DNA of 38,262 nt from a bacterium (GTDB lineage Bacteria > Patescibacteriota > Microgenomatia > Levybacterales > UBA12049): assembly GCA_021785915.1 (NCBI GenBank), contig JAJYEF010000003.1, positions 1-38,262 on the forward strand, in the 5' to 3' direction. The notes beneath the pieces were generated by a model. The model saw only the letters and a program-made list of their open reading frames with translations, searched no databases and was not told where the DNA came from. Positions 28,406-33,588 of the stretch are shown piece after piece; position 1 is the stretch's first letter, and each line of letters starts with the position of its first letter. Made by a program: the position numbers and the translations under genes.

Positions 28406-28979
28406 CTTTTTTTCCTCTTTCGTCTATGTTTTCGGAATGTTTTTTGTCGGGAGAAATAATAGTAATCAATTTTCTCCCTTCCAAATGCCTTTCCCGTTCT
28501 ACCTTTGATATCTGAGACAGCTCATTTATTACTTTATCCAGAACTTGGTGCCCAAATTCGGGATGTGTAATCTGTCTTCCGCTAAAAAAAACGACGAGCT
28601 TTACTTTATCACCGCTTTGCAAAAATTCTTTTGCTCTTCGGGTCATAACCGTAAGGTCGTTATCGCCCATAAAAGGTCCCAGTCTTACCTCTTTGGTCTC
28701 AGAGACTTTTGCCTTTTTCTTCTCTTCCTTTTTCTTTTTTTCCTCCTGGTACAAAAATTTATTAAAGTCAATAATTTTTGCAACCGGAGGCTTGGCTTGA
28801 GGGGCTATTTCAACCAAGTCTAAACCCTGCTCCTGGGCAAGTTTTAAAGCTTCCGCTTTTGGTAAAACGCCTATTTGCTTTCCCTCGCTGTCCAGCACTC
28901 TTAACTGGAAAGCAAATATATGTGCGTTTGTTCTGTAAAACCTTCTATTGTCGGTTTGTTTCTTATGCCTTTTTATCAA
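28371..28979 (-). CDS. infC: translation initiation factor IF-3 (non-ATG start: TTG 28979 or ATA 28976)
   Basis: GLDLVEIAPQAKPPVAKIIDF, KEVRL, GDKVK, FSGRQ. Confidence 0.95.
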   Translation of the reverse strand: MIKRHKKQTDNRRFYRTNAHIFAFQLRVLDSEGKQIGVLPKAEALKLAQEQGLDLVEIAPQAKPPVAKIIDFNKFLYQEEKKKKEEKKKAKVSETKEVRLGPFMGDNDLTVMTRRAKEFLQSGDKVKLVVFFSGRQITHPEFGHQVLDKVINELSQISKVERERHLEGRKLITIISPDKKHSENIDERGKKDGKEENQKIGS

Positions 28980-30186
28980 TTTCTTGTCTTAATTTTTTAG
29001 TAAGATCCGGCAATTTAAACTTTCCTAAATCTTTTCCGCTTCTAAATCTTACCGAAATGGATTCATCTTCCATTTCTCTTTCGCCTATTATACCTAAATA
29101 TGGGACTTTTTGCAAAGTTGCATCCCTTATTTTTGCACCTAATTTCTCGTTTCTTATATCTACCTCGCTTCTAATGTTTAGCTCAAGCAAGTCCTGGTTA
29201 AGTTTCTCCGCATATGAATTCACAGTTTCAGTTATAGGCAAGAGTATTATTTGAATGGGCGAAAGCCATAAAGGAAATGCGCCTTGAAAATGTTCGGTAA
29301 GAATCCCAATGAATCTTTCGAAGCTTCCAAAAATTGCCCTGTGGATCATGACCGGCCTTTCGAATTTACCTTTTTCGTTTACATACTTAAGGTCGAATGC
29401 CTCCGGCATGTGGAAGTCAAGCTGGACTGTGGCAAGTTGCCATTCTCTGTCGAGGGCGTCTTTTATGTGCAAATCAATCTTTGGTCCGTAAAAAGCACCG
29501 TCGCCTTTTTTGTCTCCTGCTTTAATCCCTTTTTTCTTTAATACGTCTTCCATGTCTTTTTCCGCCTTATCCCACATTTTGTCCGTTCCGGCGCGCTGGT
29601 CGGGGCGTGTAGCAAACCTGAATTCATATTCAAAACCGAAGTTTTTGTAAAAAGCAATCATCATGTCCAAAATCGCCGACACCTCGTCAAAAATCTGATT
29701 TTCCCTTACGTAAAGGTGTGCGTCGTCCATCGTAAGCTGTCTTACCCTTAATAGGCCGTTCACCTCGCCTGATTTTTCGCGCCTGTGGAGTCTTCCAAGC
29801 TCCGCAAGTCTTAACGGCAGCTCCTTGTAGGTTCTTGGTCTAAATCTGTAAAGAATAGTTGATTCGGGACAATTCATGGGTTTAAGAGTGTAGCTTTCAG
29901 GGTGCTGGTCGTTCTCGTCATCTGCAAGTGTCAAATTATACATATTGTGTTCGCCGAACTTAACCCAGTGCCCCGATTCCTTGAATAGTTTAGATTTAAC
30001 CATTATCGGAGTTGAAGTTTCTACATATCCTGCTTTTTCGGTTAATTCCCTTATGTATCTTTCGAGTTCCTTAAAGATCACCATTCCCTTGGGAAGCCAG
30101 AATGGGGCACCCGGCGCGTAATCATGTGTAAAAAATAATTCCAGCTCCTGCCCTATTTGTTTATGGTCTTTCAATTTTTTGTCCAT
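28963..30186 (-). CDS. thrS: threonine--tRNA ligase, short form lacking N1/N2 (editing) domains
   Basis: Starts at DHKQIG; LKPMNCP, GLLRVR, GAFYGPKID, MIHRAIFGSFERF; 407 aa. Confidence 0.97.
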   Translation of the reverse strand: MDKKLKDHKQIGQELELFFTHDYAPGAPFWLPKGMVIFKELERYIRELTEKAGYVETSTPIMVKSKLFKESGHWVKFGEHNMYNLTLADDENDQHPESYTLKPMNCPESTILYRFRPRTYKELPLRLAELGRLHRREKSGEVNGLLRVRQLTMDDAHLYVRENQIFDEVSAILDMMIAFYKNFGFEYEFRFATRPDQRAGTDKMWDKAEKDMEDVLKKKGIKAGDKKGDGAFYGPKIDLHIKDALDREWQLATVQLDFHMPEAFDLKYVNEKGKFERPVMIHRAIFGSFERFIGILTEHFQGAFPLWLSPIQIILLPITETVNSYAEKLNQDLLELNIRSEVDIRNEKLGAKIRDATLQKVPYLGIIGEREMEDESISVRFRSGKDLGKFKLPDLTKKLRQEIDKKA

Positions 30187-31503: not shown

Positions 31504-31713
31504 TTATAGACCAAATCTCCAAGCTTCGTGAGCCGGCCCTTCTGTAAGATTTAGTCCTTCGTAACGAGGGTGTTCGGAGCCAAGATGGTTTTGCTGTTCT
31601 CCAGTGCTTTGTGACTCGTCTTCTTTTTTAGACGATGAAGTCATAGCGCTTAACGCGCGAAGAGCATGTTCAACCTTTGCTCCCTGGTTTACACCAGAAA
31701 GTTTTTCTCTCAT
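31504..31713 (-). CDS. hypothetical protein behind attenuator 1
   Basis: 69 aa; perfect SD AAAAGGAGGTGA just upstream of ATG. Confidence 0.7.
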   Translation of the reverse strand: MREKLSGVNQGAKVEHALRALSAMTSSSKKEDESQSTGEQQNHLGSEHPRYEGLNLTEGPAHEAWRFGL

Positions 31714-31740
31714 TTAATCACCTCCTTTTAAAAGAGCATT

Positions 31741-31764
31741 AAAAATCTCCCGCTAAAGGGGAGA
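31741..31764 (-). terminator. intrinsic terminator (3:4 hairpin) of attenuator 1
   Basis: mRNA UCUCCC CUUUAGC GGGAGA UUUUU. Confidence 0.75.
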
Positions 31765-31784
31765 ATTATATATGTCTCCCACAA

Positions 31785-31841
31785 TCAAATTCCCTTAATA
31801 AGGGTAATTTTGTTGATTTGGAAGACTTCTAAGTTATCCAT
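31785..31841 (-). CDS. putative leader peptide MDNLEVFQINKITLIKGI (attenuator 1)
   Basis: Translated by hand; overlaps the 1:2 hairpin; stop lies just before segment 2. Confidence 0.6.
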   Translation of the reverse strand: MDNLEVFQINKITLIKGI

Positions 31842-31854
31842 AATGTATTTTCCT

Positions 31855-31931
31855 TGGTGGATCCGAGAGGATTCGAACCTCTGACCTTTGCAATGTCAAT
31901 GCAACGCTCTAACCAACTGAGCTACGAATCC
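31855..31931 (-). tRNA. tRNA-Val(GAC), CCA encoded
   Basis: GGATTCGTAGCTCAGTTGGTTAGAGC; anticodon arm TTGCA-TT GAC AT-TGCAA; GTTCGAATC; ACCA. Confidence 0.95.
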
Positions 31932-31994
31932 TAATACCTGTCTGAATCTAAGACAGGTATAATTTTATCAGAATAAATTCCTCAATACAATTTT

Positions 31995-32222
31995 CTAAAG
32001 ACTGTATTGTCGTCTCTCAAAAATAATTGATACTTTCTCTGCCTCTTCAGGTGGAGGGACAAATAATGTATCTTTTCCCCCGTTGACTGTAATAGGGACA
32101 ACTTTTATCTCTATTCGCTGGCCGTTATAAGCTTTTGCGTCAATCTTCGTATCGGCGTGAACTCCACTTCTAAAGAGTCCGGCTTTTTCAAGCAAGGACC
32201 AGCCGCTACTTTTTTCTTTCAT
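31995..32222 (-). CDS. hypothetical protein
   Basis: 75 aa, third gene of a tightly spaced operon. Confidence 0.6.
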   Translation of the reverse strand: MKEKSSGWSLLEKAGLFRSGVHADTKIDAKAYNGQRIEIKVVPITVNGGKDTLFVPPPEEAEKVSIIFERRQYSL

Positions 32223-32227
32223 AATGT

Positions 32228-32461
32228 TTATGAATTCTTTTGACCTTCATTAAATACTTCAATAGGTTGACTTTGTCCTGTAAATTTTTCAGCAGATGGA
32301 TTTAAATATCCTGATTGAAAAGCACGTAAAGCAGATTCGACTTGTGCTTGATCCGGTTCAACTCCTATTCTACTCGCTTGAAAGAAATCTTCTGAAGTCG
32401 GATACTCTCCTTTGTTTGGTACTTTTCCTCTTCTCCCTACTTCTACACTATAATAGGCCAT
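32228..32461 (-). CDS. hypothetical protein
   Basis: 77 aa; SD AAAAGGAGGTGA formed by the last codons and stop of the upstream ORF. Confidence 0.7.
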   Translation of the reverse strand: MAYYSVEVGRRGKVPNKGEYPTSEDFFQASRIGVEPDQAQVESALRAFQSGYLNPSAEKFTGQSQPIEVFNEGQKNS

Positions 32462-32468
32462 ATATTTT

Positions 32469-32699
32469 TCACCTCCTTTTATTTAATTCTCCATACCATA
32501 ATTCTCGTGTTCTTTCGGCATCTTTTTGGCAATTGATACATCTGCAAATTTGAGCCCTTTTTTCTGCTGTAGCAATTTCCCGATTGGCTCTGGAGTTGTA
32601 GATTGTTAAAGCTTCTCTAATTGCAAGAGGAACCACTTCGTCTACAATTGGATCGGATAATTGCGAATCGGTCAGTTGTTTTTCTATTATTTCTTTCAT
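32469..32699 (-). CDS. hypothetical protein with CRCINC motif behind attenuator 2
   Basis: ATG 32699 with GGAG 6 nt upstream. Confidence 0.65.
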   Translation of the reverse strand: MKEIIEKQLTDSQLSDPIVDEVVPLAIREALTIYNSRANREIATAEKRAQICRCINCQKDAERTRELWYGELNKRR

Positions 32700-32709
32700 A
32701 GATAACTCC

Positions 32710-32737
32710 AAAAAAAATCTCCCTTGTTTGGGAGATT
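32710..32737 (-). terminator. intrinsic terminator (3:4 hairpin) of attenuator 2
   Basis: mRNA AAUCUCCC AAACAA GGGAGAUUUUUUUU. Confidence 0.8.
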
Positions 32738-32785
32738 GTTCTTTTGTTTAAAATTTTGTTTTATTACATCTTTTCTCCCAAACAA

Positions 32786-32839
32786 TTACGCCTCCATAAG
32801 GAGGTTAATAATCGTTTGGAAAAGAAAAGATCTTTTCAT
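32786..32839 (-). CDS. putative leader peptide MKRSFLFQTIINLLMEA (attenuator 2)
   Basis: Translated by hand; 11 nt after the -10 box; stop lies just before segment 2. Confidence 0.65.
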   Translation of the reverse strand: MKRSFLFQTIINLLMEA

Positions 32840-32850
32840 ACTATAAAAAA

Positions 32851-32879
32851 ATTCTACAAAAGGTATCATTCCCTGTCAA
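32851..32879 (-). promoter_or_regulatory. promoter TTGACA-17-TAGAAT of attenuator 2
   Basis: Minus strand: TTGACA gggaatgataccttttg TAGAAT. Confidence 0.8.
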
Positions 32880-32887
32880 GAGGCAAA

Positions 32888-33415
32888 TTACCTTCTTTTT
32901 CTCGAATTCCACGATTTTGGAGCCTCATATTGTCCCTCGACCCTGAATTGATTCTCGATTTTATCGGCATCTTTTTTTCTTCCGCGCGCATCCTGGATAA
33001 TCGCAGGAACTCCCTCAAAAATGCCCCTGTGGCAGTATAGCCTTAAGCTGTTGTCATCATAAGGGTTGCCTATTATAAATATATGTATATCGGGTTTTCC
33101 CTCTGTTCTTGAAGCTAAAACCGCGCTGCTTCCGGTTATTGCACCGTCTAAGGAAAACTGGGTAGTTAGTTGTTGCCATACGCTGTCTATTTTTTCACTT
33201 TCGTTTTTTGATAATCTACCTGCTATCTCCGTAAACGAAGACCTGCTGCCAAGAGTTGAGGCAACGAATAGCGGTCTACCATGATCGGGAAACGGAGCAA
33301 AGGTTACGGGATGTCTTTCTCCTTTTCTTATGCTTGCGCACGGAACGATAGTTGCATCCGCACTTATCGTAACGTTAGGATGCCTAAATCTTTCTTCTAA
33401 ATATTTTTCTGTCAT
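32888..33415 (-). CDS. hypothetical protein behind attenuator 3 (C-terminus weakly RelE-like)
   Basis: ATG 33415 with SD GGAGGTGA 5 nt upstream; 175 aa. Confidence 0.7.
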   Translation of the reverse strand: MTEKYLEERFRHPNVTISADATIVPCASIRKGERHPVTFAPFPDHGRPLFVASTLGSRSSFTEIAGRLSKNESEKIDSVWQQLTTQFSLDGAITGSSAVLASRTEGKPDIHIFIIGNPYDDNSLRLYCHRGIFEGVPAIIQDARGRKKDADKIENQFRVEGQYEAPKSWNSRKRR

Positions 33416-33435
33416 ATTTATCACCTCCAGTCCAT

Positions 33436-33460
33436 AAAAAAACCTCCCGCTTGGGAGGCT
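33436..33460 (-). terminator. intrinsic terminator (3:4 hairpin) of attenuator 3
   Basis: mRNA AGCCUCCC AAGC GGGAGGUUUUUUU. Confidence 0.8.
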
Positions 33461-33482
33461 TTAAGGCGCATTTAATTAAAAG

Positions 33483-33545
33483 CTACGCCAAGAAACCTCC
33501 CCTTAAGGAGATCTTGATAAGCTTCTTAATAAAAATTAATTTCAT
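33483..33545 (-). CDS. putative leader peptide MKLIFIKKLIKISLRGGFLA (attenuator 3)
   Basis: Translated by hand; 6 nt after TTGACA-17-AAAAAT (33552-33580). Confidence 0.65.
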   Translation of the reverse strand: MKLIFIKKLIKISLRGGFLA

Positions 33546-33588
33546 AAAATTATTTTTTCAAAACTTATAATTTATGTCAACAACCAAA

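Follow-up and report, generated by a model that had tools for sequence, protein, structure and literature searches.

Probable leader-peptide transcription attenuators preceding genes of no known family in a Levybacterales genome

Three minus-strand leaders, here called A, B and C, were analysed in a stretch of 38,262 nucleotides (nt) of a Levybacterales genome (contig JAJYEF010000003.1, positions 1 to 38,262, assembly GCA_021785915.1). This whole stretch is referred to as the window. In each leader a short upstream open reading frame (uORF) is embedded in a hairpin and followed by a U-tailed terminator and a gene without known family. A, B and C are probably ribosome-mediated leader-peptide transcription attenuators and members of a large, fast-diverging family found throughout the order. 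The anatomy of the leaders, their family, the covariation and the switching in thermodynamic folds are shown here; where transcription begins and ends, that the uORFs are translated and which signal acts are inferred. The genome comprises 983,556 bases and is rated 100% complete; the relatives used for comparison are genomes from the same order (Candidatus Levybacteria, Candidate Phyla Radiation, CPR). All three leaders are intergenic and lie between the trigger-factor/DUF5660 genes and a UPF0047 gene. Their common plan had been noticed in a preliminary description of the window, and all of its parts were found again at their places.

Leader A contains the following elements:
33552-33580, minus strand: promoter, TTGACA, 17 nt, AAAAAT, with TG upstream of the -10 box
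33483-33545, minus strand: uORF, 20 codons and TAG, encoding MKLIFIKKLIKISLRGGFLA
33436-33458, minus strand: intrinsic terminator, CCTCCC, AAGC, GGGAGG, T7
33421-33435, minus strand: mini-ORF MDWR, 4 codons, beginning right after the U-tract
32888-33415, minus strand: gene for a protein of 175 amino acids (aa), no Pfam or PHROG family

Six nt separate the end of the -10 box from the ATG, and the uORF would be leaderless. It spans segment 1 (TCTCC, 33511-33507) and segment 2 (GGGGAGGTTT, 33502-33493). A small hairpin (TCTCC/TTAA/GGGGAGG) has segment 2 as its 3' arm, and the TAG stop sits within a spacer hairpin (33489-33465). The terminator 5' arm and the flanking AAAG can alternatively pair with segment 2. 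The stop codon of the mini-ORF overlaps the strong Shine-Dalgarno (SD) sequence of the 175-aa gene.

For leader B the elements are:
32851-32879, minus strand: promoter, TTGACA, 17 nt, TAGAAT (11 of 12 positions)
32786-32839, minus strand: uORF, 17 codons and TAA, encoding MKRSFLFQTIINLLMEA
32774-32785, minus strand: segment 2, TTGTTTGGGAGA, the 3' arm of the P1 hairpin
32710-32735, minus strand: intrinsic terminator, TCTCCC, AAACAA, GGGAGA, T8
32469-32699, minus strand: gene for a 76-aa protein, alternative TTG start at 32711

Here 11 nt lie between the end of the -10 box and the ATG; judged by this spacing, the uORF is presumably leaderless or nearly so. The uORF occupies the 5' arm and the apical hairpin (CCTCC TTAT GGAGG, 32804-32791) of the long P1 hairpin. 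Segment 2 is a perfect 12-nt complement of the terminator 5' arm plus loop, with which it can form an antiterminator.

Leader C follows a tRNA gene:
31855-31931, minus strand: tRNA-Val(GAC), upstream of the leader
31785-31841, minus strand: uORF inside the P1 hairpin, 18 codons and TGA, encoding MDNLEVFQINKITLIKGI
31741-31764, minus strand: intrinsic terminator, TCTCCC, CTTTAGC, GGGAGA, T5
31504-31713, minus strand: gene for a 69-aa protein, no Pfam or PHROG family

This leader appears to have no promoter of its own and to be carried on the tRNA-Val transcript. Its P1 hairpin consists of segment 1 (31826-31813), an apical hairpin (CCCTT ATT AAGGG, 31804-31792) and segment 2 (GATTGTGGGAGAC, 31786-31774). 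GGGAGA is found at 31780-31775, and the long hairpin ends in GGGAGAC. Behind the terminator come a 3-codon mini-ORF (31739-31728) and a strong SD sequence.

According to the proposed mechanism, transcription would start at or within a few bases of the uORF AUG in A and B, and C would be part of the tRNA-Val transcript. If the uORF is translated to its end, the ribosome would cover segment 2 (the GGGAG arm), the terminator 5' arm would stay free and transcription would end before the gene. An earlier stall in the uORF would hold segment 1 and leave segment 2 free to pair with the terminator 5' arm, and the polymerase would enter the gene. The antiterminator would comprise 12 bp in B, 9 bp with a stacked spacer helix in A, and 6 bp in C.

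To model the switch, each leader was folded at equilibrium with the sequence cut after the terminator loop, while a mask of 28 nt representing the ribosome was moved codon by codon. In A, B and C, a stall inside the ORF led to pairing of the terminator 5' arm with segment 2, and with the ribosome at the stop the arm was free. The alternative pairing of the GGGAG segment, as described before, was thus reproduced by constrained folding in all three leaders. Leader B gave the classical pattern: its arm was paired to 0.16-0.21 when no ribosome was present, to 0.9-1.0 when one occupied codons 3-16, and to 0.19-0.23 when it had reached the stop. For leader A the values were 1.0 both without a ribosome and at codons 2-11, falling to 0.03-0.30 from codon 15 to the stop, with at most 0.25-0.30 at the stop itself. 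Leader C showed 0.79 without a ribosome, 0.83-0.98 mid-ORF and 0.00 at the stop. According to these folds, the ribosome finishing the uORF is predicted to be what lets the terminator form in A, B and C. For A, and to some extent for C, read-through is predicted when the leader is not translated.

The terminator motif was searched as CTCCC-N3-9-GGGAGR-TTTTT, with the reversed pattern as control. The genome contains just three matches, which are leaders A, B and C. Of 151 genomes sampled from the order, 115 contained the motif; the reversed pattern gave one match. In a phylum-wide sample it was detected in 78 of 401 genomes; many of these sites are single two-way terminators, as is mostly the case outside the order. 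The loci collected from the relatives comprised 74 motif terminators, and in 70 cases a GGGAG-like segment stood 12-85 nt before the terminator. In 55 of these 70, an ORF with an ATG start and at least 10 aa stopped -13 to +8 nt from this segment 2, compared to 10.2 ± 2.9 in 200 shuffles (maximum 20) and 2-12 at decoy positions. With the range allowed for the stop widened to +30 nt, 69 of 70 qualified. A sigma-70 promoter (at least 9 of 12 positions) with a -10 hexamer ending 6-14 nt before the ATG preceded 58 of the 69; the most frequent distance was 7 nt (21 cases). Since this gap leaves no room for an SD sequence, the uORFs of the family would be leaderless or nearly so.

A second search did not depend on the motif. 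It asked for a promoter with an ATG at a distance of 5-13 nt, an ORF 8-40 codons long and a terminator with any perfect stem, and yielded 76 leaders in the collected loci, with the uORF starting about 7 nt past the -10 box. The sequence of the terminator 3' arm (at least 5 nt) was repeated near the uORF stop in 61 of them. One architecture recurs at 76 sites despite diverged sequence. A generic scan of the window's genome by the same idea, with the ATG 5-14 nt past the -10 box, returned A, B, a fourth member on contig C92 and one doubtful site on contig C45. The leader on C92 (from about 3769 downwards, minus strand) has the same architecture: a TTGACT-17-TAATAT promoter, a 23-codon uORF 7 nt past the -10 box with a GGGGG segment near its stop, and a terminator with a CCCC/GGGG stem (CCCCTTAACAAGGGG-T6), followed by a gene with a strong SD sequence and no known family.

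The 76 leaders were folded in the same way. A leader was counted as a switch if its terminator 5' arm was paired to at least 0.8 mid-ORF and to at most 0.3 with the ribosome at the stop. This was the case for 50 of 76 leaders and for 1-3 of 76 after shuffling of the upstream part (3 repeats); the full classical three-state pattern was seen in 29 of 76 only. Segment 2 changes in concert with the terminator stem. Stems of the types CCGCC/GGCGG, CCCGC/GCGGG, TTCCC/GGGAA and ACTCCC/GGGAGT go along with the matching purine string at the uORF stop. The duplex of segments 2 and 3 was more stable in cognate than in non-cognate combinations (-14.52 versus -12.94 kcal/mol), and none of 5000 permutations was as extreme, in statistics that treat the related sequences of the family as independent, as do all permutation and shuffle tests given here. 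The same held for the CCTCCC-type stems alone (-14.58 versus -13.41; 0 of 5000 permutations). Furthermore, cognate helices reached 1.35 bp into the terminator loop and non-cognate ones 0.59 bp (57 of 76 leaders usable; 0 of 10000 permutations). Such an extension cannot be produced by the similarity of segments 2 and 4 alone.

In an alignment of eight B-type leaders the 12-bp antiterminator was paired to 94.8%, and three of its pairs, all in the part that pairs with the loop, carried compensatory changes. For the structure of antiterminator and apical hairpin, 91.2% of the cells pair, compared to 84.4% in shuffled alignments, and the covariation score was 0.252 versus 0.142. Neither value was reached in any of 500 shuffles, and the slid controls were all lower. 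These sequence comparisons indicate that the 2:3 pairing is under selection. RNAalifold also preferred the antiterminator in the B alignment; this was rejected as evidence, because the terminator 3' arm is out of register between sequences with loops of different length.

The leader peptides of several relatives fit the genes behind them:
MNKRILLLNLVLLLKE (Leu-rich): before LeuA
MHRSLQIIDIIIPS (Ile-rich): before threonine dehydratase (ilvA)
MKQSAIASTTTTKLS (TTTT): before threonyl-tRNA synthetase (thrS)
MRKSHVIICTCTTIPS (CTC): before a PALP (cysteine-synthase-like) enzyme
MKSHKIMLSYYKFTSQ (aromatic-rich): before shikimate kinase (aroK)
MQKLTKTFGFFYLTP (aromatic-rich): before shikimate dehydrogenase (aroE)
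a further aromatic-rich peptide: before a GNAT acetyltransferase

Runs of at least four residues of one class within six were found for 29 of 75 peptides in frame and for 14 and 15 in the other two frames. The in-frame runs comprised 10 of Leu, 10 of aromatic residues, 7 of Ile, and 1 each of Thr and Cys. The codons at which a stall is predicted to cause antitermination match the residue run, ASTTTTK before thrS and ICTCTTI before the PALP enzyme. Among 28 downstream proteins scanned, 10 had a Pfam family above the cut-off and 18 had none. One family of five proteins (90-122 aa, no known family) always stands behind Ile-rich leaders. The trp/his-type geometry suggested earlier, with 1:2, 2:3 and 3:4 pairings and the stop at segment 2, is borne out by the masked folds, the covariation of the B-type leaders, the concerted change of segment 2 and the cognate leaders in relatives.

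The thrS gene with the TTTT leader peptide codes for 581 aa. In contrast, the threonyl-tRNA synthetase ORF of the window (28963-30186, minus strand) has only 407 codons for amino acids and is without an attenuator-like leader.

Several points weigh against attenuation as described. As already noted in the preliminary description, the peptides of A, B and C lack a run of control codons; none has four or more of six residues of one class. Their richness in Ile, Leu and Phe may partly stem from the pyrimidine-rich segment 1. The antiterminator of leader A is the predicted default even without a ribosome, and in leader C the two states without a ribosome are nearly equal, so neither is fully classical with three states. 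The A-type alignment (eight sequences) contained little covariation, and RNAalifold picked a 1:4 plus 2:3 fold for it. The C-type alignment (four sequences) showed too little covariation to decide. Equilibrium folding ignores kinetics. The members of the family are related, and hence the permutation counts overstate their independence. Finally, terminator C could merely end the tRNA transcript, and terminators A and B lie downstream of genes without a terminator of their own.

Regarding the signal, a stall caused by shortage of charged tRNA is most likely. A covariance model of the B-type leader gave 62 matches in 49 of the 151 genomes. In three genomes, B-type leaders stand before genes for LeuA, an HMGL-like synthase and a class-IV (branched-chain-type) aminotransferase, and every B-type peptide is a mixture of these residues: Leu, Ile and Val. 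Because homologous leaders precede genes of branched-chain amino acids (BCAA) and the peptides are such mixtures, leader B was assigned to BCAA (Leu/Ile) sensing; we regard the chances that this assignment is right as about even. The peptides of leaders A and C are rich in Ile, Leu and Lys. Relatives of A are mostly rich in Ile, Val and Leu, with exceptions.

The T-box model RF00230 and the RelA/SpoT domain PF04607 had no match in the whole genome. Because the genome is rated 100% complete and is without such matches, the leader peptides may be its main sensor of amino-acid supply. A broader picture is possible, which we put forward tentatively. The order might possess a 'ribulon' of dozens of leaderless attenuators tuned to Leu/Ile, Thr, Cys and aromatic amino acids. 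It would control the remaining amino-acid genes and many lineage-specific small genes, some of them in a hot spot of gene exchange, and would be the main coupling of genes of unknown function, possibly for host interaction, to amino-acid supply.

By the same mechanism, A, B and C could instead sense general translation stress, such as antibiotics or global starvation, in the manner of the mycobacterial whiB7 leader. This had been the interpretation of the preliminary description. It is not supported as worded there, since the family overall is amino-acid themed and the B-type leaders, which precede BCAA genes in three genomes, have peptides rich in Leu, Ile and Val throughout. Among the 'GG read-through' relatives of A, most peptides are rich in Ile, Val and Leu, too. 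We retain it as a rival explanation and consider it rather unlikely. The missing residue runs in the window peptides would fit such a sensor. So would the relatives of A, which share similar C-terminal ends and have unrelated N-terminal halves (MNYRFELKSKNN... versus MKLIFIKKLIKI...), and leader B, in which a stall at almost any codon from 3 to 16 yields the antiterminator. In the part of the whiB7 report available to us (PMC10274678), stalling in the uORF likewise leads to antitermination before a target that is not biosynthetic; the uORF differs in sequence from species to species and reacts to the shortage of many amino acids. The same part describes Ala-enriched uORFs and a single regulator gene, whereas the peptides found here are rich in Ile and Leu and stand before several unrelated small genes.

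Leaders A and B each formally form a complete transcription unit. They might be independent small genes with their own promoter, a peptide or small RNA as product, and a terminator. The downstream genes would then be reached by incidental read-through, and an RNA of about 110-130 nt or the peptide would act in trans. Trans-acting attenuator RNAs and leader peptides are known in Sinorhizobium, as stated in the portion of the source we could use. However, the peptides are conserved only where RNA pairing dictates it, the position of the stop follows segment 2, and the 2:3 helix covaries. Moreover, no promoter fits between terminator and gene, and in relatives the composition of the peptide matches the downstream enzyme. 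We regard this explanation as improbable; a role in trans alongside attenuation would be compatible with our evidence.

Control could also act mainly on translation. The terminator 3' arm (GGGAGG) stands at SD distance from a start codon directly behind the U-tract, and the hairpin would hide this SD-like arm until a stall in the uORF frees it. An ATG or GTG 0-3 nt past the U-tract was found in 49 of the 76 leaders, compared to a background of 11% (361 of 3268); 23 of these 49 starts open a long gene and 26 a mini-ORF of at most 12 codons. In the window, such mini-ORFs follow terminators A and C, and leader B shows an in-frame TTG at this place. Leaderless polycysteine short ORFs of mycobacteria (the 'Cys ribulon') were shown experimentally to act on translation, at a sequestered ribosome-binding site, according to the part of the report at hand (10.1101/834739). 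With these the present leaders would share the leaderless sensory uORF and the many independent leaders that respond to one signal. According to the same part, the mycobacterial device unmasks a ribosome-binding site. The present family would rely mainly on a U-tailed terminator and comprises several amino-acid classes side by side. Against translation as the main level, the hairpins, with GC-rich stems of 6-8 bp, run into a tract of 5-8 U and are scored as intrinsic terminators, the genes behind A and C carry their own strong SD sequence outside the hairpin, and stems of the type CCGCC/GGCGG are not SD-like, yet the architecture is kept. Thus, translational control as the principal device has little probability. 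The start codon behind the U-tract suggests a second, translational layer or translational coupling, and as such a second layer translational control is more likely.

Ordinary terminators of the upstream genes and the tRNA, with small ORFs and hairpins by chance, are very improbable: no other terminator lies between the DUF5660 gene and leader A or between the 175-aa gene and leader B, terminator C follows a tRNA and the motif outside the order is mostly a single two-way terminator, but the uORF, promoter spacing, position of segment 2 and switching are far above shuffled controls, and the architecture is kept at 76 sites with diverged sequence. A plus-strand TTG ORF of 40 aa (32724-32846) runs antisense to leader B. 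That it encodes a small hydrophobic peptide of a type I toxin-like pair is scarcely credible, as among eight B-type leaders its full length is kept only in the same-genus relative and the rest have 21-35 aa of unrelated sequence or none, and no toxin-antitoxin RNA of Rfam was matched; a type I toxin-antitoxin locus was rejected because the antisense ORF is not kept beyond the genus and the sense peptides are conserved only where pairing dictates it.

The comparison with Rfam that had been proposed in the preliminary description gave, at gathering scores, only five tRNAs in the window and no match to a riboswitch, another cis-regulatory family or a toxin-antitoxin RNA. With loose thresholds, all three leaders gave sub-threshold full-length matches to leader-peptide families: 35.4 and 28.3 bits for Phe_leader (RF01859, gathering score 55) and 25.5 bits for His_leader (RF00514, gathering score 49). 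In the Phe_leader alignment of leader A (35.4 bits), the posterior probability was high only over the terminator. These matches are a resemblance of shape and not membership. We attribute the sub-threshold matches (Phe_leader, His_leader, STnc230, RNAI and others) to the terminator or to chance and rejected them.

Like the classical attenuators of Proteobacteria (trp, his, phe, leu, thr, ilv), the present leaders have a short ORF, here presumably translated, 1:2, 2:3 and 3:4 pairings and a terminator before the gene. In both, a ribosome at the stop would mask segment 2, and in the relatives cognate-rich peptides stand before biosynthetic genes or thrS. The two groups share no sequence homology, however, and the uORF is presumably leaderless here and SD-led there. 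The window peptides are also without codon runs, and the targets are of unknown function. The ilvBNC operon of Corynebacterium glutamicum is reportedly preceded by a BCAA-responsive leader-peptide attenuator with three hairpins.

The closest likeness in the start of the uORF was described for Deinococcus deserti. There, leaderless leader peptides were predicted in 14 cases before aminoacyl-tRNA synthetase and biosynthesis genes, according to the part of the report accessible to us (PMC4007540). As far as this part goes, the uORF lies at the transcript 5' end right after the -10 box, and peptides rich in one residue precede aminoacyl-tRNA synthetase or biosynthetic genes, as in the present family. 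Differences are the other phylum and the unrelated sequences; furthermore, many targets here are lineage-specific small genes, and the terminator 3' arm often doubles as SD sequence for the start behind the U-tract.

The principle of these leaders is textbook knowledge. What is new is the lineage, how large the family is, that the targets have no known function, and that a start codon often follows the U-tract directly. No paper joining leader-peptide attenuation with CPR, Patescibacteria or Microgenomates was found in full-text searches of articles without their supplements, in agreement with the preliminary description, to which no report of such leaders in CPR bacteria was known. CPR bacteria are uncultured and obtain most building blocks from other cells; a large share of their genes has no known function, and their regulation is nearly unknown. 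A switch that can be read from the sequence and names the amino acid of a gene is a first functional handle on such genes. In addition, the attenuator family is a simple marker for small unannotated ORFs and for true transcription units. The family is absent from Rfam, and adding it would therefore improve the annotation of hundreds of genomes.

When the DNA of 40 relatives was searched, parts of leaders A and B turned up again in other genomes, unlike the genes behind them. The order trigger factor, DUF5660 gene and B-type leader was found in 13 of 18 genomes checked, with differing genes behind the leader. The sequencing runs found to contain this DNA are all DNA contigs, with no RNA run among them. 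On contigs of other strains, homology to the window ends precisely where terminator B does (32711) and sets in again at tRNA-Val (31924-31935). This break, together with the differing genes, indicates a conserved leader with exchanged cargo, and the region behind the B-type leader looks like a hot spot of gene replacement. A contig end of 507 bases from the same genus is 100% identical to positions 31737-32243 of the window, which contain the 75-aa ORF, tRNA-Val and leader C. The neighbouring parts are only 73-88% identical. The identity could be due to recent transfer or cross-assembly.

No Pfam or PHROG family was assigned to the downstream genes, in line with their earlier designation as orphans. 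Two further ORFs follow the 76-aa gene and are likewise without Pfam or PHROG family:
32228-32461, minus strand: ORF of 77 aa
31995-32222, minus strand: ORF of 75 aa

In a protein search of a large collection, the 76-aa protein found no relative but itself. The 175-aa protein has five relatives among 5.8 billion proteins. Its AlphaFold model is mediocre (mean predicted local distance difference test score, pLDDT, of 60; residues 1-56 below 50) and had no match in the PDB at E ≤ 0.001. When the five small proteins were compared with the collected loci by tblastn, three, among them the 69-aa protein, were without any relative. For the 175-aa protein there was one weak relative, and the 75-aa ORF had an identical copy in a genome of the same genus.

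A 10-bp hairpin (31934-31960) was observed directly upstream of tRNA-Val(GAC). Judged by eye, it is placed between a TTGTAT-17-TAAAAT promoter-like site and the tRNA, and it may be a processing signal.

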